Both the position numbers and the translations under genes were made by a program. Below, piece by piece: positions 42,333-60,459 of a stretch of 64,000 nt of DNA; position 1 is the first letter of the stretch, and each line of letters begins with the position of its first letter. Where the stretch lies: NCBI GenBank assembly GCA_001687465.1, contig LVLI01000109.1:1-64000 (forward strand). The letters run 5' to 3'. The notes under the pieces were generated by a model. The model ran no database searches. It had not been told where the DNA came from and was given only the letters and a program-made list of their open reading frames with translations. This stretch comes from Halocafeteria seosinensis. Its lineage: Eukaryota.

Positions 42333-44045
42333 AGATGTTTGACAAGACATTTCAAGGAATCAAACAAGAAAAATGTTGAGGCGTAATCCAATAGCAACAT
42401 GAATGATAAGTTTTACAGTAGCGGTACTCGAAGCATAATGATAATAACCTTAAATTATGTACACAACAGATCTTGCTTGCGCGGATGTATCAGGGTTTCT
42501 GCCGCTGGGGGGAATGGCGCTGTACCCGCGATGGGATCACCTCACGATTGAAGACAGGATATCTGACATTACCACGAGAATCGACATAGACCAAAGCTCA
42601 GCACAATGTTTGAATCTGTATGAGCAGCTTGCGTGTGATATGTTTTTCTTCTTCGCATTCATTCTCCCTTTCATGAACGCTTCCGTCGTGCTGCATTTGC
42701 ATAACATTGCTGTTTTCTCCGCTCGTGGACGGAGTTCGGTAAATGAATCAGGATGATCATAGTGTAGATGTTACTAAGCTCAAGTAACTAAGAAATGCTT
42801 TTATACCGGTTGTGCTGTACTGATCGTCCTATTATAGGCTAAAATCAGAAGTAGGGCTAAACTCTAAACCAGGAGTTCGGCTCTTATTCGCATTTAGAAA
42901 TTCGAACACTCGACAGACGGCGGAAAACTCCACTTTTTTGCCCGCAGTTTTTACTAGAGGGGTGGTATCCGCTGTAGCCAACACGATTTTTTTCCACCTT
43001 GGATACTCTCCCGCAAGTCGTGGGAATTAGCGTGGACATTTGATAGAGGTGTTGCCATCGTAGTCAGAGACAGGAGAATTCGTCACAAAGTTAACGAATG
43101 CGAACAGATTTTACATGGTGTCATACTTTTACAGCAAACCAATGGCGCGACAAGTCTCGAAATCAAAACCTCGAGACAGATTTCGAATAGCTCATCATTG
43201 TAACATGACTCTGGGTTTTGCTGGTAGCCTATCCACACCAGTCCTGGTCCGACCACCGATGGGAACCCTAACTCGTTGATGCAGAAACTTCGAAGCACTC
43301 TGTACATCAGTCCAACTTGGACGATGCAACTATAAATCTCTATATACTTCCTTACCTCGTGACCTCTTTGCCCGTTCGATGACGACGACGGAACCACCAT
43401 TGGTGTCCGAAGCAGTCCGAGGTAGCGTCGGTGGCGAAGATCCCTTCTTCGGCTGGTCCCGGGATAATCGCGCAGTTGCTTCATGGGTATTTACAGGCCC
43501 AGTGGTTTCTGTCTCTAGCAAAAGCAACCATGTTACAGCATACCCCAGCTGACACAGTGCTGAACACCTGCAGGACACTACTGTACATATTATCCTCCTG
43601 CATTCTTTCGCTGTTGTCCCTCGTCCTTGGCATCATTTCACCCTGTTCCCTTCTCTGATTTTCCTCTTCTCTGCTCTCTTTGTACGTGTGTTCTCCGTCA
43701 AGCATCATAAGACCATGTACAGTGCAGGTACTGGTTTTACATATTGTATTCCCGCACCGTGTCCCTCGCCAGATATTCCCAATATTTGCACCTTAACAGT
43801 CTGAAATAGGTCTGTACTTGGTACAATACACCGAGGATCTCTCCTTTCTGTCTTGTTTGCTTTGTAATAACCCTCTCTATTTCTTTTGCTTTTGGCTGAC
43901 CGGAACGGCAAAAAAAAAGATGATGTGAGAAGGAGATACAGAAAAGAAGATACTAACGCTTCTTCTTTTCTGTCCTCCTTCCCAGATGGTCAATTTTGCT
44001 TAGTCTATTAATAATGTTGTTTATGTGTCTATGTGTATATATATA

Positions 44046-44102
44046 TAGATTTTTTTTTATAAATTTATATATATATATATAATATATTTATAAAATAATC
44101 TA
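44046..44102. repeat. AT-rich imperfect palindrome at the host/element junction
   Basis: tagatt..ttttataaat-ttatatatatatatataa-..atttataaaa.aatcta folds with bulges on both arms. Confidence 0.75.
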
Positions 44103-44491
44103 ATAGGCTAGTTAGAAAAAATTAAAAACATTAGCATCAGGCACAATTGCTCCCTTCTTGGGGGAGGTAGCGATTTTTAAAGAAAGTTTATTTTAAACCG
44201 TTATTACCCTTCATTAATGAAACTAAAAGAAAATGAACACATTTTCACAAACGATACTAAATTGTTTTTGACGCCACTTTTTTCTAAAAAGGGCTTTGGG
44301 TTAGTTATTGAAAAGGATAGTCAGTTAATGAACCTAACCAACAACGAACTTCCGTATATTCTAGATTACAATTAACAAAAGCATCCAAAATACATTCATT
44401 TTCAATTCCACCTAAAGAATACAACCATTTAGCTGTTTCTAGATGACCATTTTGACAACACCAACGAAATTCGGGGAAAAGGTTAGGAGTT

Positions 44492-44827
44492 TTAATTTTT
44501 GTTAAACAGTGTTTTAAGTTTATTTTCCCAAGAAAGATTAGGATTATTCATAAAACTAGTAATATCTACCGCATTTTCTAACTGAAGGTATAGGTCTGGA
44601 TTTTGTTGTATAAGAAATGTTTCGTGTAAATAGTCCCAGACTTCATCCCAATTAATCTGCGATTTTTGAATGTTGGGGTAATCATCTACGTTAAATTCTT
44701 TTACGATATCGCTAAGGATACCCTCTTGTTCTGTAAGAGGGTAGTCCCAAAAGTCTAAAGGTATAATGTTGTTCTCGATAATGAGAGCGGTTTCTTTGGT
44801 ATCATAGTTAGTCCATTGGTTTTCCAT
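44492..44827 (-). CDS. Hypothetical viral protein
   Basis: 111-aa ORF with an upstream AAAAATGATTT motif shared with neighbouring genes. Confidence 0.6.
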   Translation of the reverse strand: MENQWTNYDTKETALIIENNIIPLDFWDYPLTEQEGILSDIVKEFNVDDYPNIQKSQINWDEVWDYLHETFLIQQNPDLYLQLENAVDITSFMNNPNLSWENKLKTLFNKN

Positions 44828-44893
44828 TGTTTATATATGTGGTTTTGTTTAAAAAGAAAAAAACAAAATCATTTTTTTTTTCTCATTTTTGAA

Positions 44894-46006
44894 CTATTTA
44901 GAGCAAAATAGAAAGATTTCGTTGGGAAAAAATCGCATTTCTTCTTTTAGATTTTCAAGCTTGTTAGCACAAAATACTTGGCTAAAATATTGCTTCAATT
45001 TTTCAATTCTTTTCAATAGATTGGCTTTACTCCTATCTCGTTCAATATGGTATGCTATAACCATTTTCTTTACCCCTGTAAAGTCAATGTTGTCTATTAG
45101 TTCTATTTCAGCACCTTCAATATCCATCTTAATACAATCGCCTTTTTCTATTAATTCCTGTAAATTTTGAACATCTGTTTCCCAGTATTCGGTTTTATTT
45201 TTGTTCGGATAAAAGGAATTCAACCACGGTTTAGTAGGGTGTTTATAAAACTTTCTTTTATTTTCTCTATCAATACCTAAAGGTTTATCAATAATAGTTG
45301 GAATTTTAACATTTCTTTGACTAAACCAATCTTTCATGATTTCTGTATTCCTAGGGTCTGGTTCGCAAAAGTATTTAACAGAACCTCCATTCATCAGGAC
45401 TTTAAAACTAAAACAACCAATATTTCCCCCACAATCAATCCATCGTTCATAAGGTTCAATTTTAAAACTGCGTCTTTGATAGGGACATTTTCTGATTACT
45501 TCCTTGACTATTGAATTGTATTCCGGATAGTCTGGATAGAAACTGAAACAATTATTATGATACAGCATAACCGAATACCTTGTTCCTTGATGGGGTTTAT
45601 TGTAGTGAGTAATATTAGTTCCATCAAAGACTTGAGGTTTATGATTAATGTCTATTTCTTCAAGTGTTCCATTAGGATGTTCTAAGACTAATTCACCACC
45701 CGTATAATTACCTAAACCTAGTATCAAAGTATTTCCTACATTTTTCCCATCTTTATGAGGCGGACATACAAAATCTTTGTTAATGGTGGCTGATGAAAAA
45801 GGAAAATTATACTCTTTTCCTATCTTTTTTATTGCTTCCCAGATTTCTGGATACTGATAGGTTAATTTCGTGTTTCCAATTTCACTAGTAAATAGTTTTT
45901 GAAAAATGCCTAGATGAAAGGATTGTATTTTGGTATTTGAAAGTTTTTTCCGCTGAGTTGTTGGAAATGGTTCTAGCTGATTAAGTAGGTCTTCTAAAAT
46001 ATCCAT
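44894..46006 (-). CDS. 2OG-Fe(II) oxygenase (TET/JBP-like) fused to FkbM-family methyltransferase
   Basis: HxD 'PPHKDGKN', 'LGNYTGGEL', distal His and Arg 'FDGTNITHYNKPHQGTRYSV'; then 'WIDCGGNIGCFS', 'CEPDPRN', 'IKMDIEGAE'. Likely start ATG 46006, because the upstream in-frame part is translated repeat DNA. Confidence 0.75.
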   Translation of the reverse strand: MDILEDLLNQLEPFPTTQRKKLSNTKIQSFHLGIFQKLFTSEIGNTKLTYQYPEIWEAIKKIGKEYNFPFSSATINKDFVCPPHKDGKNVGNTLILGLGNYTGGELVLEHPNGTLEEIDINHKPQVFDGTNITHYNKPHQGTRYSVMLYHNNCFSFYPDYPEYNSIVKEVIRKCPYQRRSFKIEPYERWIDCGGNIGCFSFKVLMNGGSVKYFCEPDPRNTEIMKDWFSQRNVKIPTIIDKPLGIDRENKRKFYKHPTKPWLNSFYPNKNKTEYWETDVQNLQELIEKGDCIKMDIEGAEIELIDNIDFTGVKKMVIAYHIERDRSKANLLKRIEKLKQYFSQVFCANKLENLKEEMRFFPNEIFLFCSK

Positions 46007-46100
46007 ATATATTTCTGAAATACTTTGTTCCTTTATGCTTTTAAAAAACATGGCAAAACGGTTTTTTGATGTTACTTTTTTTCTAAAAAAGAACAAAGCA

Positions 46101-46373
46101 TTAGATAAGACATTCAACAGGTTCTTTAGGTTGGATAGGTTTAACAGTAGTTTTCTTTTTAGCATCTTTTTTCTTTTCCTTATTATTATTGAATTGGAGT
46201 ATATAGTTGGGTTCTTCTAACCCTAGTTTTTCAAGTCTGGCTTGAATAGCTCCTGTAGTTCGTCCTAATTCTTTGGCTATTTCTTCTTTAGAAATTTTGT
46301 TATTATAACGGGTTTTAAGGGTTTCTTCTTGCTCTGTAGTCCATTTCTTGTATGTACCTGCTTTACCTGACAT
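46101..46373 (-). CDS. Small helix-turn-helix (Myb/GcrA-like) DNA-binding protein
   Basis: 'KWTTEQEETLK....EIAKELGRTTGAIQARLEKLGL'. Confidence 0.7.
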   Translation of the reverse strand: MSGKAGTYKKWTTEQEETLKTRYNNKISKEEIAKELGRTTGAIQARLEKLGLEEPNYILQFNNNKEKKKDAKKKTTVKPIQPKEPVECLI

Positions 46374-46425
46374 TATATATGTGTTTTTCTTTTTGAAACT
46401 AGAAAAAACAAAATCATTTTTCCCC

Positions 46426-47112
46426 TCATTTTTCAGGCTCATCGTCCAGTAGATTAGCGTTGTTTTGATACGATTTACATTTCTTGGACTTATGATGTCT
46501 GGTTAGATTACCCCTACTAACTTCTAGAGAGCAGAATTCACAAGTTATTTTTTGTCTCAAATACTCTTTATTCTTTTCATACCATTGTTTATTCCATTGT
46601 TTAGCCTGTTCAAGATATTTTTCACGATTATCTTTATTCCATTGTTTAGCCTGTTCAAGATATTTTTCACGATTATTTTTCTTCCACTGTTTAACCTGTT
46701 CAATACATTTCTCCCTGTTTTGTGAGTACCATTGTGCATGCCATTGTTTAGATTTATCTTTGTTATTTTGACGATATTCTTTTTTCTCTCTAGAAGGAAC
46801 ACGCTTATTTAACGTAGCTTGTAATTCTTCAAGATAATATCGTTCTCTTTTCGCTAACTGATGGCTAGTTTCACAGGGATACTGTTCAAGCAACACCATA
46901 TCCCAGTTTTCCCAGCCACCATTTTCTCTAATAAACTGATAAACGTAGTAATCATATTTTTTATCATTTGGAATGGTGCTACAGGATTTATGTTGCCTTT
47001 TTCTCTGTTTGAAATTTGTTGTGCTTCCCACATAACAATCATTTATTGAAGGGTCTAAACATGCTATCTTGTATATCAAACCATTATTGTAATTCACTTG
47101 TTTTTTTGGCAT
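46426..47112 (-). CDS. GIY-YIG endonuclease with C-terminal zinc finger
   Basis: 'GLIYKI..CYVGST..FKQRK..H', conserved Glu in 'RERYYL', 15-aa repeats 'REKYLEQAKQWNK', C-terminal 'CEFC..LTRHHKSKKC'. Confidence 0.85.
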   Translation of the reverse strand: MPKKQVNYNNGLIYKIACLDPSINDCYVGSTTNFKQRKRQHKSCSTIPNDKKYDYYVYQFIRENGGWENWDMVLLEQYPCETSHQLAKRERYYLEELQATLNKRVPSREKKEYRQNNKDKSKQWHAQWYSQNREKCIEQVKQWKKNNREKYLEQAKQWNKDNREKYLEQAKQWNKQWYEKNKEYLRQKITCEFCSLEVSRGNLTRHHKSKKCKSYQNNANLLDDEPEK

Positions 47113-47185
47113 TTAAACTTTATAATACTTTTTAAAAGATATAACTCTAAATCATTTTTTTTGTTGGCTATAGATATAATAAAAA

Positions 47186-47371
47186 ATGGTCAGATTAGGA
47201 GGAGCAAAAGGAAAGAAAAGAAAATCGAAGTGGAACACTGTGCTGTCGGATGCTCTTAAAGCACGTTACCAAAACATACCTAAGTTAGCTCAACAGTCCA
47301 AATGGACAAGAGAACGAGTATTTAGGAATGCTGTAGAAGCAACAAAGAAATGGTATAAACCTAAGAAATAA
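47186..47371 (+). CDS. Small basic protein with N-terminal GG motif (putative core protein)
   Basis: 'MVRLGG|AKGKKRKSKWN'; paralog at 61028-61231. Confidence 0.65.
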   Translation: MVRLGGAKGKKRKSKWNTVLSDALKARYQNIPKLAQQSKWTRERVFRNAVEATKKWYKPKK

Positions 47372-47428
47372 AGCTCTTTTTTAGAAAAAATACTTTTAAA
47401 AAAGTTCTGCTATGTTTTTTTAAAAGCA

Positions 47429-47635
47429 ATGAATAATCCTAAACTAAACGGGTTACAGAAGCGAATTTTGAAGCTAAAGAAATTACAACAGTGGTTAGTT
47501 TACCGTATGATATCTGAACGATATGGTGAGGACATACTACACGTGAGTGGAAGTATAACGACTTTCTTACCGGAGCATTTAGACGATGATTTCATAGATG
47601 AACTGGATGCGTATGTTAAGAGTTTCCAGCGTTAG
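47429..47635 (+). CDS. Hypothetical protein
   Basis: 68-aa ORF bracketed by repeat modules. Confidence 0.5.
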   Translation: MNNPKLNGLQKRILKLKKLQQWLVYRMISERYGEDILHVSGSITTFLPEHLDDDFIDELDAYVKSFQR

Positions 47636-47684
47636 CGTCTTCAAAAGAATGTGTTTTTTTGACGCCACTTTTTTTTAAAAAGGG

Positions 47685-47906
47685 CTATTTTTTAGTTTTA
47701 CTTTTGGCCTTTTTCTTTCGTTGTCTTAGTTCCTTTTTAAACTTTGCTTTTTCTTCGGGGCTCGCAAGGATAAGGTCATCAATTTCCTGTTCAGTTTGAA
47801 AATTCCTGTTAGGAGCTTTTTTCTTTGTCCTGATTTTTTTCAGAAAATTAACAGCATCCTTGATTTCTTTTATAGGATTTTTTGCTCCACCTGTTGTTCC
47901 AACCAT
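47685..47906 (-). CDS. Small basic protein with GG motif (putative core protein)
   Basis: 'MVGTTGG|AKNPIKEIKDAVNFLKK..DDLILA'; paralog at 59667-60071. Confidence 0.65.
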   Translation of the reverse strand: MVGTTGGAKNPIKEIKDAVNFLKKIRTKKKAPNRNFQTEQEIDDLILASPEEKAKFKKELRQRKKKAKSKTKK

Positions 47907-47955
47907 TATTCTTATATAGCTCTTTTAGAAAAAAGTTCTTTTTTAGAAGCACAAC

Positions 47956-48687
47956 TTAAGCATATTCACGGACTCTAAGAGCTCTATCTGTTTGGTTGGA
48001 TATGGATTGGGCAATTACATCACTGCTACCATCCTGATAAACGAATAAATCAGGGTTATCATCAGACCTGAGATGAATATTAGTTAAACTATCTCCTAAT
48101 GGCTGTGGAGCATATGACCAGTGAAGCAGATAGTCGGTAGGTGTAGCCCCAACATCAAAAGCTTTACTTTGGGCGTCAGCCTTGGTATTACCAGTTCCGT
48201 CAAATACATTATCAATGGCGTCACGAGCACCAGTACTCATATTGTAAATGTAGAGCGTTCCGGCATCATCTTCCAACATAACATAAAGTTTAGAACCAGT
48301 CCGCTGTATCATTTCAAAATGAGTGGCATCAACAGCACTGGCGACATCACCCGCGACAGCTTTGTATTTGGAATCACCGGAACTCCATTGGTAGTAATAT
48401 TGGTCGGATTCACCAAGGGATATCTCCCCGCTGGGAGCTGTGACATCTACAACCATAGCGGACAATAGCGCTTCAATATCGTTTTGTTTGAGGTTGTTAA
48501 GACTGGTAATATCGTTATCGTTACTGGCAATATCAGATTGATTTTGCGCAATATCGTTTGAGTTGGTAGTCACATCACTTTGAAGAGTGGAGATATTACT
48601 TGAGTTGGTAGCTATACTAGCTCCGTTAGCGAAAACTAGGTCTCTAAGATAGTTTGAAAAGCCTCTGAACACATCACCTGCTGACAT
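47956..48687 (-). CDS. Putative fibre protein (coiled-coil stalk plus head)
   Basis: Asn-rich heptads 'IATNSSNISTLQSDVTTNSNDIAQNQSDIASNDNDITSL' followed by a beta-rich domain. Confidence 0.5.
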   Translation of the reverse strand: MSAGDVFRGFSNYLRDLVFANGASIATNSSNISTLQSDVTTNSNDIAQNQSDIASNDNDITSLNNLKQNDIEALLSAMVVDVTAPSGEISLGESDQYYYQWSSGDSKYKAVAGDVASAVDATHFEMIQRTGSKLYVMLEDDAGTLYIYNMSTGARDAIDNVFDGTGNTKADAQSKAFDVGATPTDYLLHWSYAPQPLGDSLTNIHLRSDDNPDLFVYQDGSSDVIAQSISNQTDRALRVREYA

Positions 48688-48764
48688 CTTTTTCTTATTA
48701 TATACCTATAGCTAAGAAAAAAAATGCTTTTGAATAATGTTTTGCCGTGCTTTTTCTAAAAGCA

Positions 48765-49034
48765 CTAGGGAATAGTTGAACCATCATCAAATTCTATAGT
48801 ATAGGTTTCCTTAAGATAACTGATATAATTTTCTAATTCAGTGACACGGTTCTTAAGGTTGTTAATTTCTTGGGTTAAGCTTTGAACATCGTCATCGAGA
48901 ATATCCTTAAGTTTTATTTTACCGTTAGACAATTCTAAACCGCTTCCGAGGCTCACTTTTTTGGTGATTTTGTCGGAATGTAGATACCGTTCAATAATAG
49001 TATTATCGTTATCAAGAATGAGTGCGACAGCCAT
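48765..49034 (-). CDS. Short fibre-like protein
   Basis: N-terminus 'MAVALILD...IIERYL' shared with the 52394 spike; shaft-like 'LGSGLELSNGKIKL'; coiled coil. Confidence 0.5.
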   Translation of the reverse strand: MAVALILDNDNTIIERYLHSDKITKKVSLGSGLELSNGKIKLKDILDDDVQSLTQEINNLKNRVTELENYISYLKETYTIEFDDGSTIP

Positions 49035-49165
49035 ACTGCTTTATAATAGATGATTTTAAAAAAATGCTTTTAAAAAAGCATGGCAAAACTGTGCTTTCCG
49101 CGTTAGCGTCTTCAAAAGAACTCTTTTCACATTAGCATCTTCAAAAGGCGGGCTGTTTTGCCGTG

Positions 49166-49720
49166 CTACTTTTGTTTTTGGATATCGCGGGTAAGCCAAG
49201 TTACAACTTGGTCATAGGTTTTTAAACCTAATTCCTTTTTGGCTTTATCCAAGGCTCTTTTATACTGTCCGATATCCAGATTTCTATTGCGGTATCTGAC
49301 TAAGGCGTGACGACCACAAGTATTGGAATCATCGGCCTGTAACTTGAACGGATTGTAGTAGATTGGCTTTTTTTCCAGACCTTGGGCTATTTTTTGGAGA
49401 ATTAGCGGGTTTTCTTGTCCTAACTCATCGTTCTTAGCTTCGGAAAGCCAAGCCAATGGTTTATCAGGGTATCCGCCGTAAGAATCAAAATATTCAACGT
49501 AATTGCCGTGGTCAATAAGCAAGACCCAGTGACCAAAATTATGCTTTTGGAGATATAAAACCATCAAAGCATGAGAAGGATTATCTAATAACTTACAGAT
49601 ATTATTCTTATTCAATTCATCATAGGTTTTTATAGGGACATGTAACCGTGTAAATTCTTGGAGCTGAGATTCGCTCAAGGCTATCTTTTCCAATTTCTTA
49701 ATTAGTTTCTTATTCACCAT
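49166..49720 (-). CDS. Adenain/Ulp1-like (clan CE) cysteine protease, virion maturation
   Basis: His 'GHWVLL', Asp 'EYFDSYG', Gln/Cys 'LQADDSNTCGRH'. Confidence 0.85.
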   Translation of the reverse strand: MVNKKLIKKLEKIALSESQLQEFTRLHVPIKTYDELNKNNICKLLDNPSHALMVLYLQKHNFGHWVLLIDHGNYVEYFDSYGGYPDKPLAWLSEAKNDELGQENPLILQKIAQGLEKKPIYYNPFKLQADDSNTCGRHALVRYRNRNLDIGQYKRALDKAKKELGLKTYDQVVTWLTRDIQKQK

Positions 49721-49900
49721 ATAGCTCTTTTTTAGAAAAAAGTATCTTCCGCGTTAGCGTCTTCAAAAGAACTTTAATAATTCTTTTGGAGTTCAATTCA
49801 AGTGTTTTTGATGCCACTTTTTCCTAAAAAGGGCTGTTTTGCCGTGCTTTTTTAAAAGCGAAGTTCAGGTGTTTTTGACGCCACTTTTTTTTAAAAAGGG

Positions 49901-50167
49901 CTAGGCACTAGCGATAGCACTAGCAATACCCTTGATTGATTTCTTAACTCCTGTTTTAAAAGCGTTTTTAGCCGTCTTTTTAGCACCTTCCCGAACTCCT
50001 TCTGGTAGATTATCGAAGATAGCTCTAGCGTTTTTGATTCCGAAGCCTCCTCGTTTAGTGGTTGGCTTATAAGTCTGAGATGCTAATTTAGAAACTTGAC
50101 TGAAAGATTTCTGGGGGTTTTGTTTGGCGACTTTACTGACGTGTTGATTCCAAGCTGTTTTTACCAT
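49901..50167 (-). CDS. Small basic protein with internal GG motif
   Basis: 'WNQHVSKVAKQNP..SKLASQTYK..KRGG|FG'. Confidence 0.6.
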   Translation of the reverse strand: MVKTAWNQHVSKVAKQNPQKSFSQVSKLASQTYKPTTKRGGFGIKNARAIFDNLPEGVREGAKKTAKNAFKTGVKKSIKGIASAIASA

Positions 50168-50218
50168 TCTGTCTATATAGCTCTTTTTTAGAAAAAAAGT
50201 AGCATCAAAAAATCTTTC

Positions 50219-50342
50219 CGCGTTAGCGTCTTCAAAAGAATGTTCTTTTTTAGAAAAAAAGTAACGTCAAAAAACTCTTTCGCGTTAGCGTCTTCAAAAG
50301 AATGTTCTTTTTTAGAAAAAAAGTAACGTCAAAAAACTCTTT
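50219..50342. repeat. Exact tandem duplication of a 62-bp R3+R1 module
   Basis: cgcgttagcgtcttcaaaagaatgttcttttttagaaaaaaagtaacgtcaaaaaactcttt x2. Confidence 0.95.
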
Positions 50343-50361
50343 CTAAAAGCACAAAAAGGGC

Positions 50362-50949
50362 TTAAAAAAAGTTTCGACAGATAGGACAAGACAATTTCTC
50401 CAGATGGGGGTAACAATCTAGACAGACAAAGTGATTACACCGTTTCCATAAATAAACGAGAGCCGGTTTCTCTTTGATACAAATGGGGCAGTCTTCAAAA
50501 TAAGGGTTTTTCAGAGTACTAAACGGGACACACTGGATATTGGGACGAAAATAACGACGAACGGCACTATATTGGGCTTTTTCAAGTGCTATCTGACGAT
50601 ATGACTCGCCGGAATAACAGTTTAAGTCCCAATCTGCACCGTGTTGTTCAAAGAACTTGACCATATATAGAGGAGCGGAAGTAACGACTGCCCATAAAGG
50701 AGAAAAAATCCACGGTTCTTCTTCTTGATGACATTCATTCGGATGAATATAATTAATAATTAGATATCTGACGAATTCATACTTGCGACAATGGAGGGCA
50801 TGAACGACATCAACAGGTTCAACCGGCATATGTTTTAATTCACAAGCGTATCTAAGAACCGCTAAATCGTTACATCTTTCAATGATACAATCAATCCTCC
50901 CCATTATGAAACAGGGAGTATGAGCCAAACATCCAATCACACGATTCAT
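50362..50949 (-). CDS. Ankyrin-like plus RING finger protein
   Basis: 'SPLWAVV..MVKFFEQHGAD' ankyrin-like; C3HC4 'CPIC..CNHFVCLDC..CPICR'; ATG 50949 directly after the R1 motif. Confidence 0.75.
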   Translation of the reverse strand: MNRVIGCLAHTPCFIMGRIDCIIERCNDLAVLRYACELKHMPVEPVDVVHALHCRKYEFVRYLIINYIHPNECHQEEEPWIFSPLWAVVTSAPLYMVKFFEQHGADWDLNCYSGESYRQIALEKAQYSAVRRYFRPNIQCVPFSTLKNPYFEDCPICIKEKPALVYLWKRCNHFVCLDCYPHLEKLSCPICRNFF

Positions 50950-51045
50950 ATAGCTCTTTTTTAGAAAAAAAGTAGCGTCAAAAAACTCTTCCACTCTAAT
51001 AATTCTTTTGGAGTTCAAGTGTTTTGCTGTGCTTTTTTAAAAGCA

Positions 51046-51195
51046 CTAGGGCTTGATACTGATTTTGGAACAGGTCATTTGGGAGTCTTCGTAGAGACAG
51101 CTACTTCGGCATCGTAATTTCTTAAAAAGTTTGTAGAAAAATGGTATTGCTCCCATCCCTCCGGTAATTATTAGGACTATAGTTATTATTTCCAT
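51046..51195 (-). CDS. 49-aa single-pass membrane protein (not in ORF track)
   Basis: MEIITIVLIITGGMGAIPFFYKLFKKLRCRSSC...; paralog at 59487-59639. Confidence 0.65.
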   Translation of the reverse strand: MEIITIVLIITGGMGAIPFFYKLFKKLRCRSSCLYEDSQMTCSKISIKP

Positions 51196-51231
51196 ACCCT
51201 ATACTTAAGGGTAAATAAATAAAATCCCCCT

Positions 51232-52335
51232 TTAGCGGAGTCTATACTTAATCCCTATCTTTTTAACAGGTTTTTTGCCAGTTTTATTCTTTTTGTTTTT
51301 CCTATTAGTAGTTTTGCCGTGCTTTTTTAAAAGCACAGTTTTGCCTTGACCTAGTGGTGGTGTTGGTGGTCGGTTTTGTGCTGGTGGTGGTGGTGTTGGT
51401 GGTGTTGGTGGTCGGTCTCTAGTAGATGCTTCGGGTTCAGCCGATAACATCCCTGTGCTCAGTTTCTCGATAGTAGCATTGCTAATTTTACTCCATGTAC
51501 GGATATCGGAGCTGTTTTGTAGTGTGCCAATCAATGATGCGTGACTCGTAGATGTAAGCTTATCAAAGACGGTTTGTATGTCTTGTGTACGCCCTTGTTG
51601 ATGAAAGGTTTGTCGTAGTATCGTTGTCAGAAGAAACATAATAATCAAAATTCGGAAGGGTTGCTTATTGGCTTGGATAAGTTGCCACGTAACTTGGCTG
51701 GAACTAAGAATAGCATTCAAGAGAGACTGTATTTTTTCTAACTGCTGTTCGTTAAATTTAGTTCCTTGTTTTTCTATGTTATTCATAGCCCGACCTAGTT
51801 CTTCAATCTTGACTTCAGAAATACGGGCTTTGGAACTTGTTACAGCGGAACGGACATCTTGAAGAACTTGTATGATACGTAGGTATTCACCTCGGTTTTC
51901 AGTCAATGGGAGCGTATCTTTATCAAGAATTTGTTTAGCTTGTTGCCCTTCTTGTTTGTTTTCGGCGTTACGCCGTAATAACCGTTGCTTTTCACGGACT
52001 AATTCATTTTCTTCGTTGGCGTTTTTTTTTATTAGAGCCCCTCCTGAATTGCTTTTGTTTTGGAATCGTCCAACCTCATCGGTTTCAAGAGATTGATTTT
52101 TTCCTTGATTGAATGCTCGATAGACCTTTTTGGTTTCAATTCGTTTTTGAATAAAGTTGATTTTGGCTTGTTGTAGCCGATTGGAATTAGTGAAGGTCTT
52201 CTTACTAGGCTTTTCTGTGATGTAAGGAGAATTAAAGAAAAACTTATAGGTTGGGTCACCCATACGACCATAATCAAGAGTAGGACGATGAGGTTGTTCA
52301 AACATTGCGTTGCCTTTAAATCCGCGTGAAGTCAT
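51232..52335 (-). CDS. Hypothetical helical protein with Pro-rich and basic tail
   Basis: 367-aa ORF preceded by the R1-type motif; an R2 repeat is translated in its tail. Confidence 0.6.
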   Translation of the reverse strand: MTSRGFKGNAMFEQPHRPTLDYGRMGDPTYKFFFNSPYITEKPSKKTFTNSNRLQQAKINFIQKRIETKKVYRAFNQGKNQSLETDEVGRFQNKSNSGGALIKKNANEENELVREKQRLLRRNAENKQEGQQAKQILDKDTLPLTENRGEYLRIIQVLQDVRSAVTSSKARISEVKIEELGRAMNNIEKQGTKFNEQQLEKIQSLLNAILSSSQVTWQLIQANKQPFRILIIMFLLTTILRQTFHQQGRTQDIQTVFDKLTSTSHASLIGTLQNSSDIRTWSKISNATIEKLSTGMLSAEPEASTRDRPPTPPTPPPPAQNRPPTPPLGQGKTVLLKKHGKTTNRKNKKNKTGKKPVKKIGIKYRLR

Positions 52336-52393
52336 TTCTCTATAGCTCTTTTTTAGAAAAAAATTTCTGAAAAATAACTATAAGGAATAAAAG

Positions 52394-53845
52394 ATGGCAG
52401 TAGCACAAATCTTGGATGATACGGGAAAAATTTTACAAAGATACATTCCGGATACTGAACACGATAGTTTTAGTGTAATAATTGCTTCGTCGGAAGCCCC
52501 ACAAGATGTTAAAGACAGTGCTGACTATGTTTGTTCTGGAACGGATGACCAAAACACAATTCAGAATGCTATTAATCAGGCTCAAGATGGGGATGTTATA
52601 CGGCTTACTAGTGGGAAATTTTTTATTGATGGAGGTAGTACCAACAATGGAAATGTGGCAATTAACTTATTAAGCGGAATTTCATTTCGTGGCTCATCTA
52701 GCAGTGGAACTATTTTAGAAGTTAACGCTAATTTTGATACTGCTATCAGAACGTTACATGCCGATGATAATAAAGATAATATAGCAATTCGTGATTTATT
52801 TGTTGACAACCAATGGGCAACTCGTGGAAGTCCAGCAGATGACCGTGGTCTTATAATTTCTACCTGTAGTTCGGTTGTTGTAGAAAATATACGCCTCGCG
52901 GATGCCGACGTAGGAGGTGAATTTAACGATAACACGTTATTTCGCGGTAATAATATTTTATGTTCCAACTGTAGTGCCGGTATTATTATAAATGGAACAG
53001 AAGCTAAAATGCCCATATATAACGGGATAAAGTGTGTGGATTGTAACAACGGAATACAGTTAAAAGGAGGATATACAACTTTGCGAGACTGTCAGTTATT
53101 GAACTGTAACGTAAATGGGGGAGATGGTGCTCTGTGGCTATATGGCTCTTCTCGTAACTTGATAGAAAATATTTCTATTCGTTCTGATACTCAAGGTTCT
53201 CCAACAGTAAAAGGAATTTATTTTGGAGATGATGGAGAGGGAAATCATAGTAGCAATAACAAACTGAGACAACTGTACCTTGAGAACTGTACTACAGGTA
53301 TGGACTTCGACCAATTAAATCAAACTAACTTTATTAGCGATGCTTGGTGTGTAAGCAATAACCGAGACGTATCTCAAAATCAAGGAGCACAAAACGAATT
53401 TTCAGGTCTGGATATTAGCAAAAAGATAGACCAACAGTACCTTTCCGCTATCTCCTCAACGGATGCTTCAATACGTATCAAGAATTCCACTATTGATATG
53501 TTTACCAGCACTGTCGACAATATTGGTGACCATTGTATTAGTATTGGGGGTAACGGTGATGGTACAAGAAACATTATCACGAACAATCGACTTCGTTCGT
53601 CCAAAGTATCTGGTGTGTTAGTTGAATTCTCTAACGTGGGAGAACCGAGTAACAATCCTTTCTTAATGATTAGTTCAAATACTATTTTTAATTGTGGAAA
53701 TTTTGGTTTAGAAATAAAAAATACAAAGAAATCCCTTATTACCGGTAATCTGGCGGAGAATAATACCGCATCAATTAACACTTTGAGTAATGATAGTAAC
53801 TCTGATTATACTGTGGTTGCCAATAGCTTTGCCAACCAACCATAA
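52394..53845 (+). CDS. Right-handed beta-helix (pectin-lyase-like) spike protein
   Basis: 'ADYVCSGTDDQNTIQNAINQA..GDVIRLTSGKFFI' tailspike-type start; Asn/Ile-rich PbH1-like repeats. Confidence 0.75.
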   Translation: MAVAQILDDTGKILQRYIPDTEHDSFSVIIASSEAPQDVKDSADYVCSGTDDQNTIQNAINQAQDGDVIRLTSGKFFIDGGSTNNGNVAINLLSGISFRGSSSSGTILEVNANFDTAIRTLHADDNKDNIAIRDLFVDNQWATRGSPADDRGLIISTCSSVVVENIRLADADVGGEFNDNTLFRGNNILCSNCSAGIIINGTEAKMPIYNGIKCVDCNNGIQLKGGYTTLRDCQLLNCNVNGGDGALWLYGSSRNLIENISIRSDTQGSPTVKGIYFGDDGEGNHSSNNKLRQLYLENCTTGMDFDQLNQTNFISDAWCVSNNRDVSQNQGAQNEFSGLDISKKIDQQYLSAISSTDASIRIKNSTIDMFTSTVDNIGDHCISIGGNGDGTRNIITNNRLRSSKVSGVLVEFSNVGEPSNNPFLMISSNTIFNCGNFGLEIKNTKKSLITGNLAENNTASINTLSNDSNSDYTVVANSFANQP

Positions 53846-53939
53846 GTGCTTTTAAAAAAGCACGGCAAAACTTTTTCCGCGTTAGCGTCTTCAAAAGAAA
53901 TATAATAATTCTTTTGAAGTTTAGGTGTTTTTGAAGCCA

Positions 53940-54911
53940 CTAAGAGCACAGAGCATAGTATCGGCAAACTGTTTCAGGTAGTTTAACACCGTTAGGTAGT
54001 TCAACTATTTCTTCATCTGGATGACCATACCCTAACTTAACTAAATCGTTTTTAGTGGGGGGTTTCAACTTACCACCGCCTCGTTTCACGGCGTCAGCCT
54101 TTGTCAAACCTTGGAAATTAATTAGTGAATGGTTCTTAACATTGGACTTAGCTACGCGTGGGAAGACAACTAAACCCCGTCTCAAGAATCGTCCTGATAA
54201 TTCAAAAAGTGGGTCACCTTTGATATACCAGAAACTGAAATTTTTAGGGGTTCGTAAAAGGTCTCGGGGTTGTAAAGCACCGTTATATCCGCGACCCGAC
54301 TTGCCTATTTTGAAATCCCGATGAATTTGAAGTTGAATTGCGTTGCCTAAACTATGTCCGGTTAAGAAAAAGCAAATCTCAGACATTTGGTCTTCGTAGG
54401 ATTTCAGAATTTCTGTTGTAGCTTTCGAATCCGCTTGATATCTTGGACTATCGGTCAATCGGTTAAACATAATATTCTTATCGGCGACAATGTCTTGGAC
54501 ATCTAGTTGAGTGCCACGGTAAGCAATAACAACTGAATTAACTAATTTATCTTGATAAACGGCGACTGTAGGAGTAGAAATATTGGCTTGGTATTGCCAC
54601 CAATCATTAATGAGCATAGGTCGTTTCTTGGGAGCTTCATAAGATGCCGAACAAATTTGAAAATAGCTTTTGTCACTAGGCTCTTTACAGCCTTTAAACA
54701 TTTGACCATTCTTGGCTTTGGCACGTGTCTGGATATCATCCACTACTTCTTTTTTGTCCTGCTCCGCGTTAGCGTCCTCTTGCTCGTTTTGCCCACTTTT
54801 GCTTTCTTTAGCTGTCTTAGCTTTTTTATTATTAACTTTGGTATTTACTTCTTTGGCTAGATTTTCCTGAAGTTTGTCAAGTTTTTTCAACAATTTAGTA
54901 ATACGACTCAT
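53940..54911 (-). CDS. Class-3 lipase-like alpha/beta hydrolase
   Basis: 'VVIAYRGT', nucleophile elbow 'LTGHSLG', 'GDP', C-terminal 'HSL'. Confidence 0.8.
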   Translation of the reverse strand: MSRITKLLKKLDKLQENLAKEVNTKVNNKKAKTAKESKSGQNEQEDANAEQDKKEVVDDIQTRAKAKNGQMFKGCKEPSDKSYFQICSASYEAPKKRPMLINDWWQYQANISTPTVAVYQDKLVNSVVIAYRGTQLDVQDIVADKNIMFNRLTDSPRYQADSKATTEILKSYEDQMSEICFFLTGHSLGNAIQLQIHRDFKIGKSGRGYNGALQPRDLLRTPKNFSFWYIKGDPLFELSGRFLRRGLVVFPRVAKSNVKNHSLINFQGLTKADAVKRGGGKLKPPTKNDLVKLGYGHPDEEIVELPNGVKLPETVCRYYALCS

Positions 54912-54971
54912 TATAATTATTCGTTTTAAAATCTAAGAATTTTTTGACGCTACTTTTTTATAAAAAGAGCA

Positions 54972-55472
54972 ATGACATTAATTTCACCTTGGTTTTGTTT
55001 CTATTGTCGTATAGAACCCGAACAATGGGTAGTTGAGGACTGGTTACGAAAAACATTTAACCAACTTTACCTTCGTTTGAAGTTAGAAGACGAACCGCAT
55101 TTAGCATTCATCTGGGATGCTGGAAAGAAAGAAATATGGCTACAATTCCCGCACATTTGGGTATCTCAAGAGGATTTGGAACGCTTACGTAGGACTATTA
55201 TTTGGATAGTCCAAGACAAGTTTGTGAATAAGGACATCATCGAAGATATTATCACCTTCAGCAAACCACCGGTTATTGAGGGAGGAAACCTACCTCGTCC
55301 AGTATTTATTGAAAAGGTAAGTCAAGTAGGTAAGACACTTTATTATGAAATTACTGATATTACTGACGAACTAGATGATAATACGGAAGCACAATGGGAC
55401 TATTTTAAGAAGGCTTGTTCATCAACTGGTCATCCGAATGACCCACATAGGGAATACAAAATCATCATCTAG
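54972..55472 (+). CDS. Hypothetical protein (weak resemblance to an inactive AEP primase-like domain)
   Basis: 166-aa ORF bracketed by inverted R1; 'KEIWLQFPHIWV' weakly recalls the 'GIHL.FP.I.V' motif. Confidence 0.45.
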   Translation: MTLISPWFCFYCRIEPEQWVVEDWLRKTFNQLYLRLKLEDEPHLAFIWDAGKKEIWLQFPHIWVSQEDLERLRRTIIWIVQDKFVNKDIIEDIITFSKPPVIEGGNLPRPVFIEKVSQVGKTLYYEITDITDELDDNTEAQWDYFKKACSSTGHPNDPHREYKIII

Positions 55473-55574
55473 GTGCTTTTAAAAAAAAAGTGGCGTCAAA
55501 AACCTAAACTGACTAGGACGCTGACGCGAAAAGTGTTTTTGATGCCACTTTTTTTCAAAAAGGGCTTATATAGT

Positions 55575-55829
55575 ATGTATCTTAAAGATTCCAGAGTTAA
55601 ACCAAGTCTATCATTGCTTAATACACCTGAAGACCAGTTTTTTAGTATGATAAAGGATTGGAAAAAAGAACTGATGGAATGGAGGGAAAAAAATAAAGAT
55701 TTCTCAGCAGGTGATACTGTGTCATGTGACCACCAGACCATGTATATAATGGTTAATGTTCTAGGTATAGTTCAATGTACCCCCGATATGTCTATTGATA
55801 ATTTTGAAAAGTATAAGGTATGCTTTTAA
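55575..55829 (+). CDS. Hypothetical protein
   Basis: ATG 55575 follows R1; stop lies inside an R2-type palindrome. Confidence 0.5.
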   Translation: MYLKDSRVKPSLSLLNTPEDQFFSMIKDWKKELMEWREKNKDFSAGDTVSCDHQTMYIMVNVLGIVQCTPDMSIDNFEKYKVCF

Positions 55830-55862
55830 AAGCATTTTTTTCTAAAAAAGAGCTATATAAGA

Positions 55863-56455
55863 ATGAAACTATTAGAACTATTCAGCGGAACAAAAAGTAT
55901 TGGAAAAGTATTTGAACCAAATGGTTGGATGGTGGTTTCCGTGGATAGTGATTCAAAATCTGAGCCGACTATTTGTGAAGATATTCTTAAACTTGATTAC
56001 AAATCCTTATGGCAACCAAAAGAGTTTGATGTAGTATGGGCAAGTCCACCGTGTACCGAATATTCCAGAATTTAGAATTAGCTAACAAAATTGTTCAAAG
56101 AACTTTGGAAATTATTATTTACCTTCAACCCAAATTTTGGTTTATTGAAAACCCCGATTCTGGATTGCTGAAAAATCAAGATTTTATGAAAAATATCCCT
56201 TTCACCAGAGCAGATTATTGTAAATATGGCTATAAATACCGTAAAAGAACGAGATTTTGGGGGACTGTTGAAGGTTTGGAACTGAAAATGTGTAAGTATG
56301 ATTGTCCAGCAACTGATGAAACAGGGAAAAAACATCTTACTTCAATAGGACAACACAGAACAGGAAATGGTCAAGTAGATAGGACTACATTAAATAAAAG
56401 ACATTCAATTCCACCTGCGTTATGTAAAGCATTTTATGATTACGTGTGCTTTTAA
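55863..56455 (+). pseudogene. C5-cytosine DNA methyltransferase, frameshifted near 56070
   Basis: Motif I 'LELFSGT', motif IV 'WASPPCTEYS', then in another frame motif VI 'FIENP' and motif VIII 'KRTRFW'. Confidence 0.8.
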
Positions 56456-56613
56456 AAAAGCACGGCAAAACACTTGAACTTCAAAAGAATTATTAGAGTT
56501 CTTTCTAAGACGCTAACGCGGAAAGAGTTTTGAAGTTTTTTAGATGCTTTATGCTTTTAAAAAAGCATGGCAAAACTTTTTTGATGCTACTTTTTTTTCC
56601 AAAAAAGAGCTAT

Positions 56614-57048
56614 ATGAAACGGTCTAGATTTTTTACCAGAGAGGAAAAAAGAATTATTGATGTATTGACATTTACGGACGATTGGACATTGTTAGGGTCT
56701 CCAGCTGACCCGAACTTTCGATATACATCTGATTTTGATGTAATGGGAAATGTGCCCTTTTCAGGAAAGAGCAAGAATATGGGACAGATGTTAGCTGATA
56801 TGTTGAAAAAGAAAGTAGAAACCATTCATCGTATGAAAAACGTCTATCTAGGCGATGTAAAAGCTGGGACACACAAAGGTGAAAAACTGAGGTGGAATAG
56901 AACAACTATTCGTCAAGGTTATCAGGTGCTCAGCCCTTTTAAAAAGAGTGGCGTCAAAAACTTGGTTTATTTAAGTGATGCCATTAACCAAATCGAAGCA
57001 GAGAATATCTGGCGGAAAAAGTGGATAAAGGGATACATCCTAATATAA
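56614..57048 (+). CDS. Pol-beta-superfamily nucleotidyltransferase-like protein, probably truncated by element B
   Basis: 'LLGSPADPNFRYTSDFDV' (hGS..DxD); the ORF runs into the 57012 hairpin and stops. Confidence 0.55.
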   Translation: MKRSRFFTREEKRIIDVLTFTDDWTLLGSPADPNFRYTSDFDVMGNVPFSGKSKNMGQMLADMLKKKVETIHRMKNVYLGDVKAGTHKGEKLRWNRTTIRQGYQVLSPFKKSGVKNLVYLSDAINQIEAENIWRKKWIKGYILI

Positions 57049-57217
57049 TTGGGGATTATCCCCAAAATTTTATAGCAGGGGGTAAAACCCTAAATCCACA
57101 GGGAACCTGCTACCTGAAGGTAGCAGTCCTATACATCTAGGGTTTAATCCTCTATTATAAAACCAAGGGGCTTAACCTCAATCATACAGGGATATACCCT
57201 ATATCCACTTTTTCCGC
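57012..57217. repeat. ~206-bp imperfect inverted repeat (long hairpin)
   Basis: Ends gcggaaaaagtggata / tatccactttttccgc; arms remain complementary up to the central ctgctacct-ga-aggtagcag; followed by ~12-bp tandem units (aaaattacact/aaattaagttt) to ~57272. Confidence 0.9.
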
Positions 57218-57383
57218 AAAATTACACTTAAAATTACACTCAAAATTAAGTTTTAAATTAAGTTTTAATAAGTAGCAGGCACCGTGGTCTTTAGGTTGTA
57301 GTGGGACTCTACAATGAGCGAGGCTTTATTGAGCGAGTCCTACATTATATATTTATATTTTCTCTAAATAGAAATTTTTACAA

Positions 57384-57644
57384 TTAATCAGTTCTAAGAT
57401 TGTTGTTGGAAAGGTAATTGGAAAGATATAATAGTCGGAAAAATACGTGTGATGTTGAGCCGAAAAGAGGTTCATCAGGGTTCAACTTCCCTTGTTTCCA
57501 ATTTTCATATAGTTCTTTTATATCATCAGCATCATCAGTTTCATACATTTCTGTGAAATGGGATTGTTCTTCGTCCCATAAGTAATTTATTACATAATTA
57601 ACGCAGTCAATGAAATTTTTGTGGGTTTCCTGTGTTTCCGTCAT
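57384..57644 (-). CDS. Hypothetical acidic protein
   Basis: 86-aa ORF with AAAATTGA about 37 nt upstream. Confidence 0.6.
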   Translation of the reverse strand: MTETQETHKNFIDCVNYVINYLWDEEQSHFTEMYETDDADDIKELYENWKQGKLNPDEPLFGSTSHVFFRLLYLSNYLSNNNLRTD

Positions 57645-57680
57645 ATTGGTAATTTAGTTTAAAGGTTACAATTTTAAAAA

Positions 57681-58076
57681 TCAATTTTTTGTTTCTATAT
57701 GTTTAAGGGTAATAACGAGTGATGGTGTATTTTGTCGGACATAATCCATAGGTAAACTATCCACTTTATTAAGGAAAGGATCCCTTTCACAGTTAGCACC
57801 TAAGGAATTAACGTAATTTTCAGAATTTAAGTAATCAACATGAAGAAGGGAAGGGGGATTATCACAAAAATTCAGGGTGATTTTCTCTATGTTATCATCA
57901 GGAATATTAAAGTCATTTGTTAAGGTTCTATTGGGGAGAATACCTTCATAGTCAATACTATGTAAATAGTTTAAATCTTTGGAACAGGATAATTTTTTTA
58001 CACCACAGGAGGTTAGATATAAAGTTGCGTTAATAAGTTGCCTTTGTTGTTGTTCAGTTATAGTGTTTTCTATCAT
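57681..58076 (-). CDS. Hypothetical protein
   Basis: 131-aa ORF with AAAATTGA about 37 nt upstream. Confidence 0.6.
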   Translation of the reverse strand: MIENTITEQQQRQLINATLYLTSCGVKKLSCSKDLNYLHSIDYEGILPNRTLTNDFNIPDDNIEKITLNFCDNPPSLLHVDYLNSENYVNSLGANCERDPFLNKVDSLPMDYVRQNTPSLVITLKHIETKN

Positions 58077-58188
58077 TTTCTTGGTAAATTTTATAATTTT
58101 AAAGTTTAAAAATCAATTTTTTGTTACCGGTAAAATTAAAGTAAAAAATTGAAATTTTATTTTATAAACCTATAAACAATATACCACA

Positions 58189-58479
58189 ATGGGAAAAGTA
58201 AAAGAACAAGTTATGGAACAAGAACAGAATGAAAATTATCAATGGTTAAAAGAACAATGGGGTTATGCGTATGAAAAAGCAAGGAAAATATTTGAACAAG
58301 GTAAAGATAAAGATCAGTTTTATTTGGATGACCGGTTTTATACAGAAGAAGAGAAAAAGAACTTTTTTGAGGATATAGAACTATTTGATTATCCAGTCTG
58401 GGAATATCTCGCAGATAGAACCATATATGGGTATTTAAGTGTTGACAAATACATTTTTTGCGATAGTGATAGTGAGTAA
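58189..58479 (+). CDS. Hypothetical protein, tandem paralog 1
   Basis: 'WG..Y..AR.I.E.GK.K..F..D..YT.EE...FFE..E.FDYPVWEYLA' shared with the next gene. Confidence 0.7.
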   Translation: MGKVKEQVMEQEQNENYQWLKEQWGYAYEKARKIFEQGKDKDQFYLDDRFYTEEEKKNFFEDIELFDYPVWEYLADRTIYGYLSVDKYIFCDSDSE

Positions 58480-58553
58480 ATAAAATTGGTAATAATATAA
58501 TGAAACAAAAAATTGATTTTTATATTTTTGAAGATAATAAGTAATATAAAACA

Positions 58554-58910
58554 ATGGGACGAATGAAAGACCGCTTGAGAGAACGAGAAGGTTGCCAATT
58601 TATGGTTAACACTTGGGGTGAGACTTATTTTGAAGCTAGAAGAATTTATGAAGAAGGAAAACCAAAAGAAGAATTTGAAATAGACACTAATTATACACAC
58701 GATGAAAGAGAGTTGTTTTTTGAGAATCTTGAAATATTTGATTATCCAGTTTGGGAATATTTAGCAGAAATAAATAAAGAAGGATTTCTAAGTGTAGATA
58801 GTTATATATATAACTATGATATTACGTCATTATATCCAACAGCAATGTTTGAGACTTTAAACGAACACACATTTAGTTATACAGACACTGACTCAGCACA
58901 TATCTTTTAA
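58554..58910 (+). CDS. Hypothetical protein, tandem paralog 2, with a tail made of PolB motif A and C fragments
   Basis: Ends '..YNYDITSLYPTAMFETLNEHTFSYTDTDSAHIF'. Confidence 0.7.
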   Translation: MGRMKDRLREREGCQFMVNTWGETYFEARRIYEEGKPKEEFEIDTNYTHDERELFFENLEIFDYPVWEYLAEINKEGFLSVDSYIYNYDITSLYPTAMFETLNEHTFSYTDTDSAHIF

Positions 58911-59458: not shown

Positions 59459-59486
59459 TTAAATCTCTTATATTTAGAGATTTAAA

Positions 59487-59639
59487 TTATTTTTCTGTTT
59501 CAACACTAGACTTACATTCAGAATTTTTACCACAACGACTTTGACAAGAGTATCTTTTACGAATGAGCTTATAGATAATGGGTGAAATTCCAGCACTACC
59601 CCCAATTACTGTTGTTAAGATAATGGTCAAAAGTTCCAT
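59487..59639 (-). CDS. 50-aa single-pass membrane protein (not in ORF track)
   Basis: MELLTIILTTVIGGSAGISPIIYKLIRKRYSCQSRC...; paralog of 51046-51195. Confidence 0.65.
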   Translation of the reverse strand: MELLTIILTTVIGGSAGISPIIYKLIRKRYSCQSRCGKNSECKSSVETEK

Positions 59640-59666
59640 TCTATAATTAACCTTAGATTTTAATTT

Positions 59667-60071: not shown

Positions 60072-60178
60072 GTTTGTTTTAAGATCTAGTCCTAATTCAT
60101 TTTTACCAAAATTTCTAAGGATGTCTAGCGAGATTGTCTTTCCTATATCTTTATTAATTTCATCTACTGTTTGATTGA

Positions 60179-60319: not shown

Positions 60320-60362
60320 TTAAAAATACAATTAAAGTTTAATATTCTTGAACTTTAATTAA

Positions 60363-60434: not shown

Positions 60435-60459
60435 TATTAACAATAATTAATAGATCACT

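Follow-up and report, generated by a model that had tools for sequence, protein, structure and literature searches.

A half-size TET/JBP-like oxygenase fused to an FkbM methyltransferase in an endogenous polinton-like element of Halocafeteria seosinensis: a candidate DNA hypermodification enzyme

Oxidation of a nucleobase is coupled to a second, tailoring reaction in several described systems. Base J depends on an analogous pairing of JBP with a glucosyltransferase, and ALKBH8 combines an AlkB-like oxygenase with a methyltransferase acting on one tRNA base. In phages, the available text of two studies describes 5mYOX/TET hypermodification clusters (Burke et al. 2021, PMC8256090; O'Toole et al. 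2026, PMC13229309), in which a TET/JBP-type oxygenase stands beside a tailoring enzyme; domains that accompany the phage 5mYOX/TET genes include, according to the second study, O-methyltransferases. Here, we describe a gene from Halocafeteria seosinensis that joins two such activities in a single small protein. The stretch analyzed (hereafter, the window) comprises 64,000 nucleotides, positions 1 to 64,000 of contig LVLI01000109.1 (assembly GCA_001687465.1). The gene lies at 44894..46006 on the minus strand, within a polinton-like, virophage-like insert of low guanine-plus-cytosine (GC) content, and encodes a mini TET/JBP-like oxygenase followed in frame by an FkbM-type S-adenosylmethionine (SAM) methyltransferase.

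The gene is intact and encodes 370 residues, as determined from its open reading frame (ORF) and an alignment of homologues. The surrounding ORF (44894..46165, minus strand) is open across 423 codons. The start was placed at M54 of that frame, position 46006, because all nine full-length homologues begin there and because the earlier ATG falls inside an intergenic motif; that upstream ATG (M39) was rejected as a spurious start within this conserved motif. At 72% identity (E = 5.9e-186), one homologue is closer than all others, and given this match and the 4248 clusters matched by the domain profile (see below), the gene and its domain lie far beyond chance. The full-length AlphaFold model (mean predicted local distance difference test score, pLDDT, of 80) consists of two domains with a low-confidence linker at residues 154-173. 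A second copy was available from run X1, which represents a haplotype or strain diverged by ~1% and whose depth over the gene is similar to that of the host flank. Compared with this copy, the gene shows no insertions or deletions over 1085 nt, and the codon changes comprise four synonymous and two conservative replacements (V126I and K88R). These differences are few but agree with constraint, and the gene looks maintained. Searches of PDB sequences with the whole protein and with the domain profile gave chance-level matches only, and matches of the whole protein in the ESM Atlas scored <0.9 and were not used.

The oxygenase domain (residues 1-152; 45551..46006, minus strand) was delimited by using conservation, hhalign and predicted fold, and forms a double-stranded beta-helix. 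Its 2-oxoglutarate (2OG) and Fe(II) signature is complete on the minus strand, with the iron ligands H84 (45755-45757) and D86 (45749-45751) forming the HxD part as H84-K-D86, the third ligand H134 at 45605-45607 and the 2OG-binding R143 at 45578-45580. Across 86 aligned relatives, these columns are nearly invariant: histidine was found at H84 in 85/86, aspartate at D86 in 86/86 and histidine at H134 in 85/86, and the R143 column holds arginine in 65/86 and lysine in 20/86.

Family membership was evaluated by using both Pfam models and profile comparisons. Tet_JBP (PF12851) was the sole 2OG family matched in 10 of 11 family members (best E = 8.1e-6); AlkB, prolyl 4-hydroxylase (P4H) and the other Pfam 2OG families were unmatched by the window protein and by 10/11 relatives. 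Among 148 further relatives, Tet_JBP was matched in 30, 2OG-FeII_Oxy_3 in two and AlkB-type models in none. By hhalign, in a comparison confined to five full Tet_JBP-FkbM proteins with Tet_JBP domains of 85-95 bits, the domain was aligned with a probability of 88% (E = 3.1e-6) over 123 columns and with the HxD, H and R positions in register. In viral loci, the domain profile also picks up genuine Tet_JBP ORFs (44-92 bits). Searched against 1.84 billion representatives, the same profile matched 4248 clusters at E ≤ 0.001, of which 1779 were at E ≤ 1e-10 and 80 at E ≤ 1e-30. Judged by these profile matches, the domain belongs to a large "mini-TET" branch that is mostly missed by Pfam, almost all of it falling below the cut-off. 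This agrees with a remark in the available text of PMC13229309 that thousands of contigs matched by phage 5mYOX profiles lack a TET/JBP annotation.

Predicted structure points in the same general direction. A model of the domain alone, built with 86 sequences, is a jelly roll (pLDDT 92.8, predicted template modeling score 0.87). When this model was used in a fold search, NgTET1 was the top PDB match and eight of the ten top rows were TET; VIA structural alignment pairs the domain with NgTET1 residues 121-318, and the top named viral matches were JBP1/TET domain proteins. The best fold matches, NgTET1 and CcTet, tie with AlkB. The fold alone thus reads as "nucleic-acid-type 2OG oxygenase", and it is sequence profiles and context that carry the TET assignment.

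The second domain (residues 166-370; 44897..45511, minus strand) is an FkbM-type SAM methyltransferase by both Pfam (PF05050, 34.8 bits against a cut-off of 22.7) and NCBIfam (TIGR01444, 47.1 bits against a cut-off of 37.7). The class I SAM-methyltransferase fold and the conserved motifs of the family are present, and the SAM-motif columns are intact. FkbM enzymes carry out O-methyl transfer, and the family is best known for methylation of small molecules and sugars. A preliminary description of the window, made from its letters and ORF list, had placed a gene at these coordinates and had proposed an intact HxD...H...R signature, a TET/JBP-like oxygenase and a full FkbM-type methyltransferase joined in frame. 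Each of these proposals is borne out: the coordinate 46006 is exactly the homologue-supported start, and the family and structure comparisons, through hhalign and the predicted fold, link the oxygenase to TET/JBP and not to protein or small-molecule hydroxylases, with the tie to AlkB noted above and the FkbM partnership described below as further context.

Linkage between these two types of domain is tight and recurrent. In 47 viral loci found by domain alignment, the mini-domain occurs either alone (~155-215 aa) or as the C-terminus of 416-478-aa proteins, and the N-terminus of these longer ORFs was the TET-Associated Glycosyltransferase (TAGT, PF20691) in 10 of 11 tested. Among 148 database relatives of the mini-domain, 15 were fused to TAGT and nine to FkbM; domain order is reversed in three FkbM fusions (P0011, P0058 and P0065). 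The oxygenase-domain tree is weakly resolved; on it, the partner label changes 11 times for FkbM and 14 times for TAGT, so that exchange, fusion and splitting of partners must each have happened repeatedly. From the methyltransferase side, a TET-like ORF was present in 71 of the 80 viral loci whose FkbM domains are closest to that of the window protein; it lies within 300 nt in 70, usually abutting on the same strand. A metagenome set of 80 FkbM loci yielded 12 with a TET ORF, all among the 16 closest relatives, and none (0/64) in the rest, which include many short contigs. The giant-virus bin L022 has a 66-bit Tet_JBP gene and an FkbM gene that are separate and lie 4 nt apart. No locus with a mini-TET–FkbM fusion was found in the viral contigs or among the metagenome matches listed, which were searched by full-length alignment. 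Because the mini-domain is repeatedly fused to TAGT or FkbM and 70 of the 80 closest FkbMs abut a TET gene, a role for the FkbM domain as a dedicated partner of TET-type oxygenases, acting in a shared pathway, is well supported.

Some of these neighborhoods are of note in their own right. A virophage-like contig (L088:9069-10986) holds a 2-kb cluster composed of a mini-TET gene (168 aa), an overlapping but separate TAGT gene (249 aa) and, on the opposite strand, a compact C5-cytosine methyltransferase (C5-MTase)-like gene (203 aa); the syntenic contig L092 has a single TAGT–mini-TET fusion, and the MTase is missing at that place. Equal-scoring mini-TET copies stand inverted at both ends of the 7.3-kb contig L103 (L103:55-588, minus strand, and L103:6691-7224, plus strand), and the gene may there lie within terminal inverted repeats. 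The mini-oxygenase domain is also present in large proteins (P0043, P0053, P0056 and P0057, 726-1143 aa; P0085, 1569 aa), some of which have two matched C-terminal stretches; P0043 additionally has a 41-bit Tet_JBP stretch and P0085 a DUF5906 primase-helicase-type region. Elsewhere, all of these proteins are free of Pfam matches.

Three observations weigh against a straightforward TET/JBP–FkbM pathway. The Tet_JBP match is sub-threshold, scoring 17.8 bits with the whole protein and 19.8 bits with the isolated domain against a cut-off of 34.9, a cut-off that is passed by 1/148 relatives (P0043). This match spans only model positions 68-164 of 164, leaving the N-terminal part of the model unmatched. 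On the FkbM tree, 15 fused proteins, the window protein among them, form a starred clade; the next starred set for that clade, of 24 rows, includes six FkbMs with no TET neighbor, so the TET-linked FkbMs are not one clade.

Taken with the architecture, the evidence suggests a two-step modification. We infer that the substrate would be DNA, in which the oxygenase would hydroxylate the 5-methyl group of a pyrimidine after replication, and that the resulting 5-CH2OH group would be the acceptor onto which the FkbM domain moves a methyl from SAM. This is the group that TAGT would glycosylate in the sister proteins, and the role of FkbM would likewise be the tailoring of an oxidized base. The predicted product is a 5-methoxymethyl pyrimidine; alternatively, the acceptor may be a 5-carboxyl formed by repeated oxidation, which would yield a methyl ester. 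A likely purpose would be to shield the element DNA against host silencing or against nucleases, whether these come from the host or from a co-infecting giant virus. Of these proposals, the one that we consider probable, with a modest degree of confidence, is that the oxygenase domain hydroxylates the 5-methyl of thymine or 5-methylcytosine (5mC) in element DNA and that the fused FkbM domain then likely O-methylates the new hydroxymethyl. A bolder version is offered tentatively, as a possibility somewhat short of probable: that half-size TETs of protist viruses swap a fused sugar transferase for a methyltransferase, and that the FkbM form makes a natural base never before reported, 5-methoxymethyl-uracil or -cytosine, with one 370-residue polypeptide.

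A second gene of the element bears on the identity of the base. A compact C5-MTase-like gene (~200-210 aa) is present with its frame broken in the window copy: the N-terminal half, with motif I and the PPC motif, occupies 55863..56072 (plus strand) and ends at a frameshift, and the C-terminal half follows in another frame at 56036..56455 (plus strand). The N-terminal half matched PF00145 below the cut-off (18.2 bits, E = 0.0018, cut-off 22), the C-terminal half was unmatched, and assignment was made by comparison with the intact 203-aa relative on contig L088 (L088:10378-10986), to which the N-terminal half was matched by phmmer (8.5e-15) and the C-terminal half by BLASTP (39% identity, E = 6e-22). 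That relative has no Pfam match at 0.001 and resembles viral short cytosine-MTase clusters (ESM Atlas score 0.97, taken as a lead only). A contig of run X1 contains 40 extra letters exactly at the break (56067/56068), by which, arithmetically, a single frame is kept. The MTase is therefore intact elsewhere, and the break is either private to the window copy or an assembly fault.

C5-MTases were found to be rare beside relatives of the gene. By local phmmer, MTase relatives occur in 4/48 mini-TET loci; this search replaced a PF00145 scan that covered 21/48 of the mini-TET records and was a weak test, the model barely detecting the MTase of the window itself. In phage records holding the closest FkbM-TET pairs, PF00145 was present in 3/50 (0/9 of those at least 90% complete) and ParB_N in 37/50; no ParB was found among the 28 element ORFs scanned with Pfam. 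According to the available text of PMC13229309, experimentally shown thymine dioxygenases carry ParB, ParB-less ones are also known, and 5mYOX genes co-occur with C5-MTs in only 6%. The preliminary description had reported a C5-cytosine MTase in the element and had proposed a route from C through 5mC to 5-hydroxymethylcytosine that relied on it. The first part stands insofar as an MTase-like gene exists, compact, frameshifted here and below the PF00145 cut-off; the route itself is not specifically supported, given the broken MTase, the scarcity of C5-MTases in both sets of relatives and the frequency of ParB. An O-methylated base as the end product, or a thymine equivalent, had also been suggested there; the former agrees with the product predicted here, and the thymine alternative is at least as likely as the 5mC route. 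Because C5-MTases are rare and ParB is common near relatives, yet the element has a compact MTase that is intact elsewhere, the chances of thymine and 5mC as the base attacked by this protein are roughly even.

Other explanations of the gene were considered. The oxygenase could act as an eraser that removes host-laid 5mC from the integrated element, with FkbM in a side role or serving to block re-methylation and with de-repression, not a protective base, as the outcome. Such a function would fit the position of the element in a eukaryotic nuclear genome, and there is precedent in the available text of two reports, one that reads Tet-like genes in about half of one group of polinton-like viruses (PLVs) as demethylases against host silencing (Bellas & Sommaruga 2026, preprint 10.64898/2026.06.19.733378) and one, also a preprint, that links a viral TET to an unmethylated provirus in an endogenous giant virus (10.64898/2026.10.09.758095). 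However, erasure leaves the recurrent fusion to a transferase, whether FkbM or TAGT, unexplained, as tailoring enzymes point to a stable modified base; the same domain is also carried on free viral contigs. We therefore regard erasure as unlikely.

It is less likely still that the protein is not a DNA enzyme at all and instead resembles ALKBH8, with an AlkB-type oxygenase and a methyltransferase working on RNA (for example, a tRNA wobble base), on protein or on sugar. The fold tie extends to AlkB, ALKBH2/3/6 and FTO, with ALKBH8 at rank 20, FkbM enzymes have their best-known substrates among small molecules and sugars, and a tRNA-His gene is present in the second element copy described below. 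Against these stand the Pfam matches, in which Tet_JBP is the sole 2OG family in the window protein and 10/11 relatives, and the genomic context, in which the TAGT fusions, and the closest FkbMs beside true Tet_JBP genes accompanied by ParB, connect the module with DNA systems. To a similar degree, we doubt that the gene is a relic, the decaying and now inactive passenger of a dead endogenous element. The frameshifted MTase and a polymerase remnant in the same element would suggest decay, but the ORF is full length with all catalytic and SAM-motif columns intact, the X1 copy is free of indels and has four synonymous against two conservative changes, and the X1 MTase has no frame break. Sequential oxidation and methylation of element DNA remains our preferred reading.

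The element that carries the gene was recognized at 44000..64000 from a step in GC content, from Pfam matches and from genes in common with virophage-like contigs. GC content falls from ~47% to 31-38% at ~44 kb. To the left of this point are long uninterrupted ORFs of eukaryotic nuclear types (DENN, WW, SHQ1, protein kinase, NB-ARC with WD40, and glycine dehydrogenase). The insert encodes a protein-primed DNA polymerase B (PolB; 155 bits), two GIY-YIG proteins, a RING protein, a beta-helix fibre, an ExoX-like_C protein, a lipase-like protein and two protease-like paralogues. These paralogues match ORFs of virophage-like contigs, one of which (L084) carries a Sputnik V18/19 penton protein, an A32-like ATPase and a D5-type primase-helicase. 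Inside the window, neither a capsid nor an ATPase gene was recognized, and no contig bridging the host-element junction was present among the matches listed. Directly upstream of the oxygenase-FkbM gene is a GcrA-like helix-turn-helix gene (46101..46442, minus strand; PF07750, 29.1 bits, cut-off 26.9), for which phmmer found no relatives in the 48 mini-TET loci. In Caulobacter, GcrA binds DNA marked with N6-methyladenine.

Between these two genes is an intergenic motif pair typical of the element (46053..46095), which holds the spurious M39 ATG and was identified through repeat families D2, D5, D8 and D9 and inverted pairs I6, I8, I11 and I12. Its core pattern has five occurrences against 0.01 expected. 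Because this ATG lies in a motif that recurs around many genes of the insert, the 370-aa gene sits within the regulatory pattern of the element itself. Between 44242 and 56608, the motif (~35-45 nt) is composed of a T-run, GAYGCYAC, a second T-run, TAAAAAAG and GCTATA. In many of the element's genes, its end coincides with the ATG, and inverted copies, often paired with a second palindromic motif (GTTTTGCCRTGCTTTTTTAAAAGCA), follow just past stop codons; examples are located at 44262-44295, 47653-47686, 49802-49902, 50176-50338 and 50949-50987, and further ones at 52341-52379, 54938-54971, 55533-55566, 55834-55866 and 56575-56608. These motifs likely constitute a promoter and hairpin terminator system. 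In naive ORF calls, the motif gives rise to a false "FFLKK" peptide.

The low-GC region has the appearance of two related elements, or of a single rearranged one, placed head to head. A PolB remnant (58554-58910, plus strand) is inverted relative to the full protein-primed PolB (61829-64000, minus strand) and associated with inverted repeats I3 and I5, and diverged second copies were found of the protease-like gene (49166-49720 and 58907-59458), the GIY-YIG gene (46426-47112 and 61261-61791) and small basic genes. The second copy contains the tRNA-His (GTG) gene (60362-60434, minus strand; Rfam, 57.5 bits). Within one GIY-YIG gene, an in-frame 45-nt tandem repeat with "KQWNKDNREKYLEQA"-like units spans window positions 46565-46793. 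On the host side, an ORF with no Pfam match (39516-42332) includes a glycine-rich and Ser/Thr-rich repeat part at 40466-42383, over which the summed contig depth in run X1 reaches ~6400 against ~100 in the flanks; this part is a member of a family that is highly repeated in that organism.

If the proposed activity is correct, one small protein would carry out a two-step hypermodification of DNA (oxidation followed by methyl capping), and the range of TET-based hypermodification would grow beyond phages to include small viruses integrating into eukaryotic genomes. The activity would also define a large and mostly unannotated mini-TET branch, provide a compact enzyme pair for DNA labeling and bear on the debate over whether the Tet-like genes of PLVs erase host methylation or build protective bases. 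Literature searches returned no paper pairing FkbM with JBP or with 5-hydroxymethylcytosine, and no report of 5-methoxymethyl hypermodified DNA or of the fusion.

The phage 5mYOX clusters are among the closest known systems. The FkbM relatives of the window protein, with 70/80 abutting TET, ParB in 37/50 and C5-MTase in 3/50, match the phage thymine-dioxygenase subclass as set out in the available text of PMC13229309. In contrast to those clusters, the oxygenase here is about half the size, sub-threshold for Pfam and fused to the methyltransferase, ParB was not found among the element ORFs scanned, and the host is a eukaryote. In their available text, neither PMC8256090 nor PMC13229309 characterizes an O-methylated product, and a term search of the former yielded no mention of FkbM, methoxy or O-methyl. 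Proteins with TAGT (PF20691) share the same mini-oxygenase family, with the transferase fused in either order or adjacent; the transferase of the window protein is instead a SAM methyltransferase, which predicts a methyl cap where TAGT would add a sugar. Long Tet_JBP-FkbM fusions (P0012, P0017, P0022, P0024 and P0026; 558-590 aa) have the same two activities in the same N-to-C order, with FkbM domains 26-32% identical to that of the window protein, but they carry a full Tet_JBP domain (85-95 bits) and ~150 extra N-terminal residues and fall outside its FkbM clade of 15. The giant-virus bin L022 has the same two activities as a split FkbM/Tet_JBP gene pair. ALKBH8 (PDB 3tht) similarly places a 2OG oxygenase and a SAM methyltransferase for the same nucleobase in one polypeptide; it differs in being AlkB and not TET/JBP by Pfam, in its methyltransferase family and in its RNA substrate.

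The remaining likeness is to the Tet-like "demethylase" genes of PLVs, including those endogenous in algae (10.64898/2026.06.19.733378). The available text of that report reads the gene as a methylation eraser and has zero occurrences each of FkbM and glycosyltransferase, whereas the fusion partners described here point to a tailored base. Both the TET-like genes of polinton-like viruses and the occurrence of O-methyltransferases close to phage TETs have been published; what is new is the fusion of a half-size TET to FkbM within an endogenous polinton-like element in a eukaryote.

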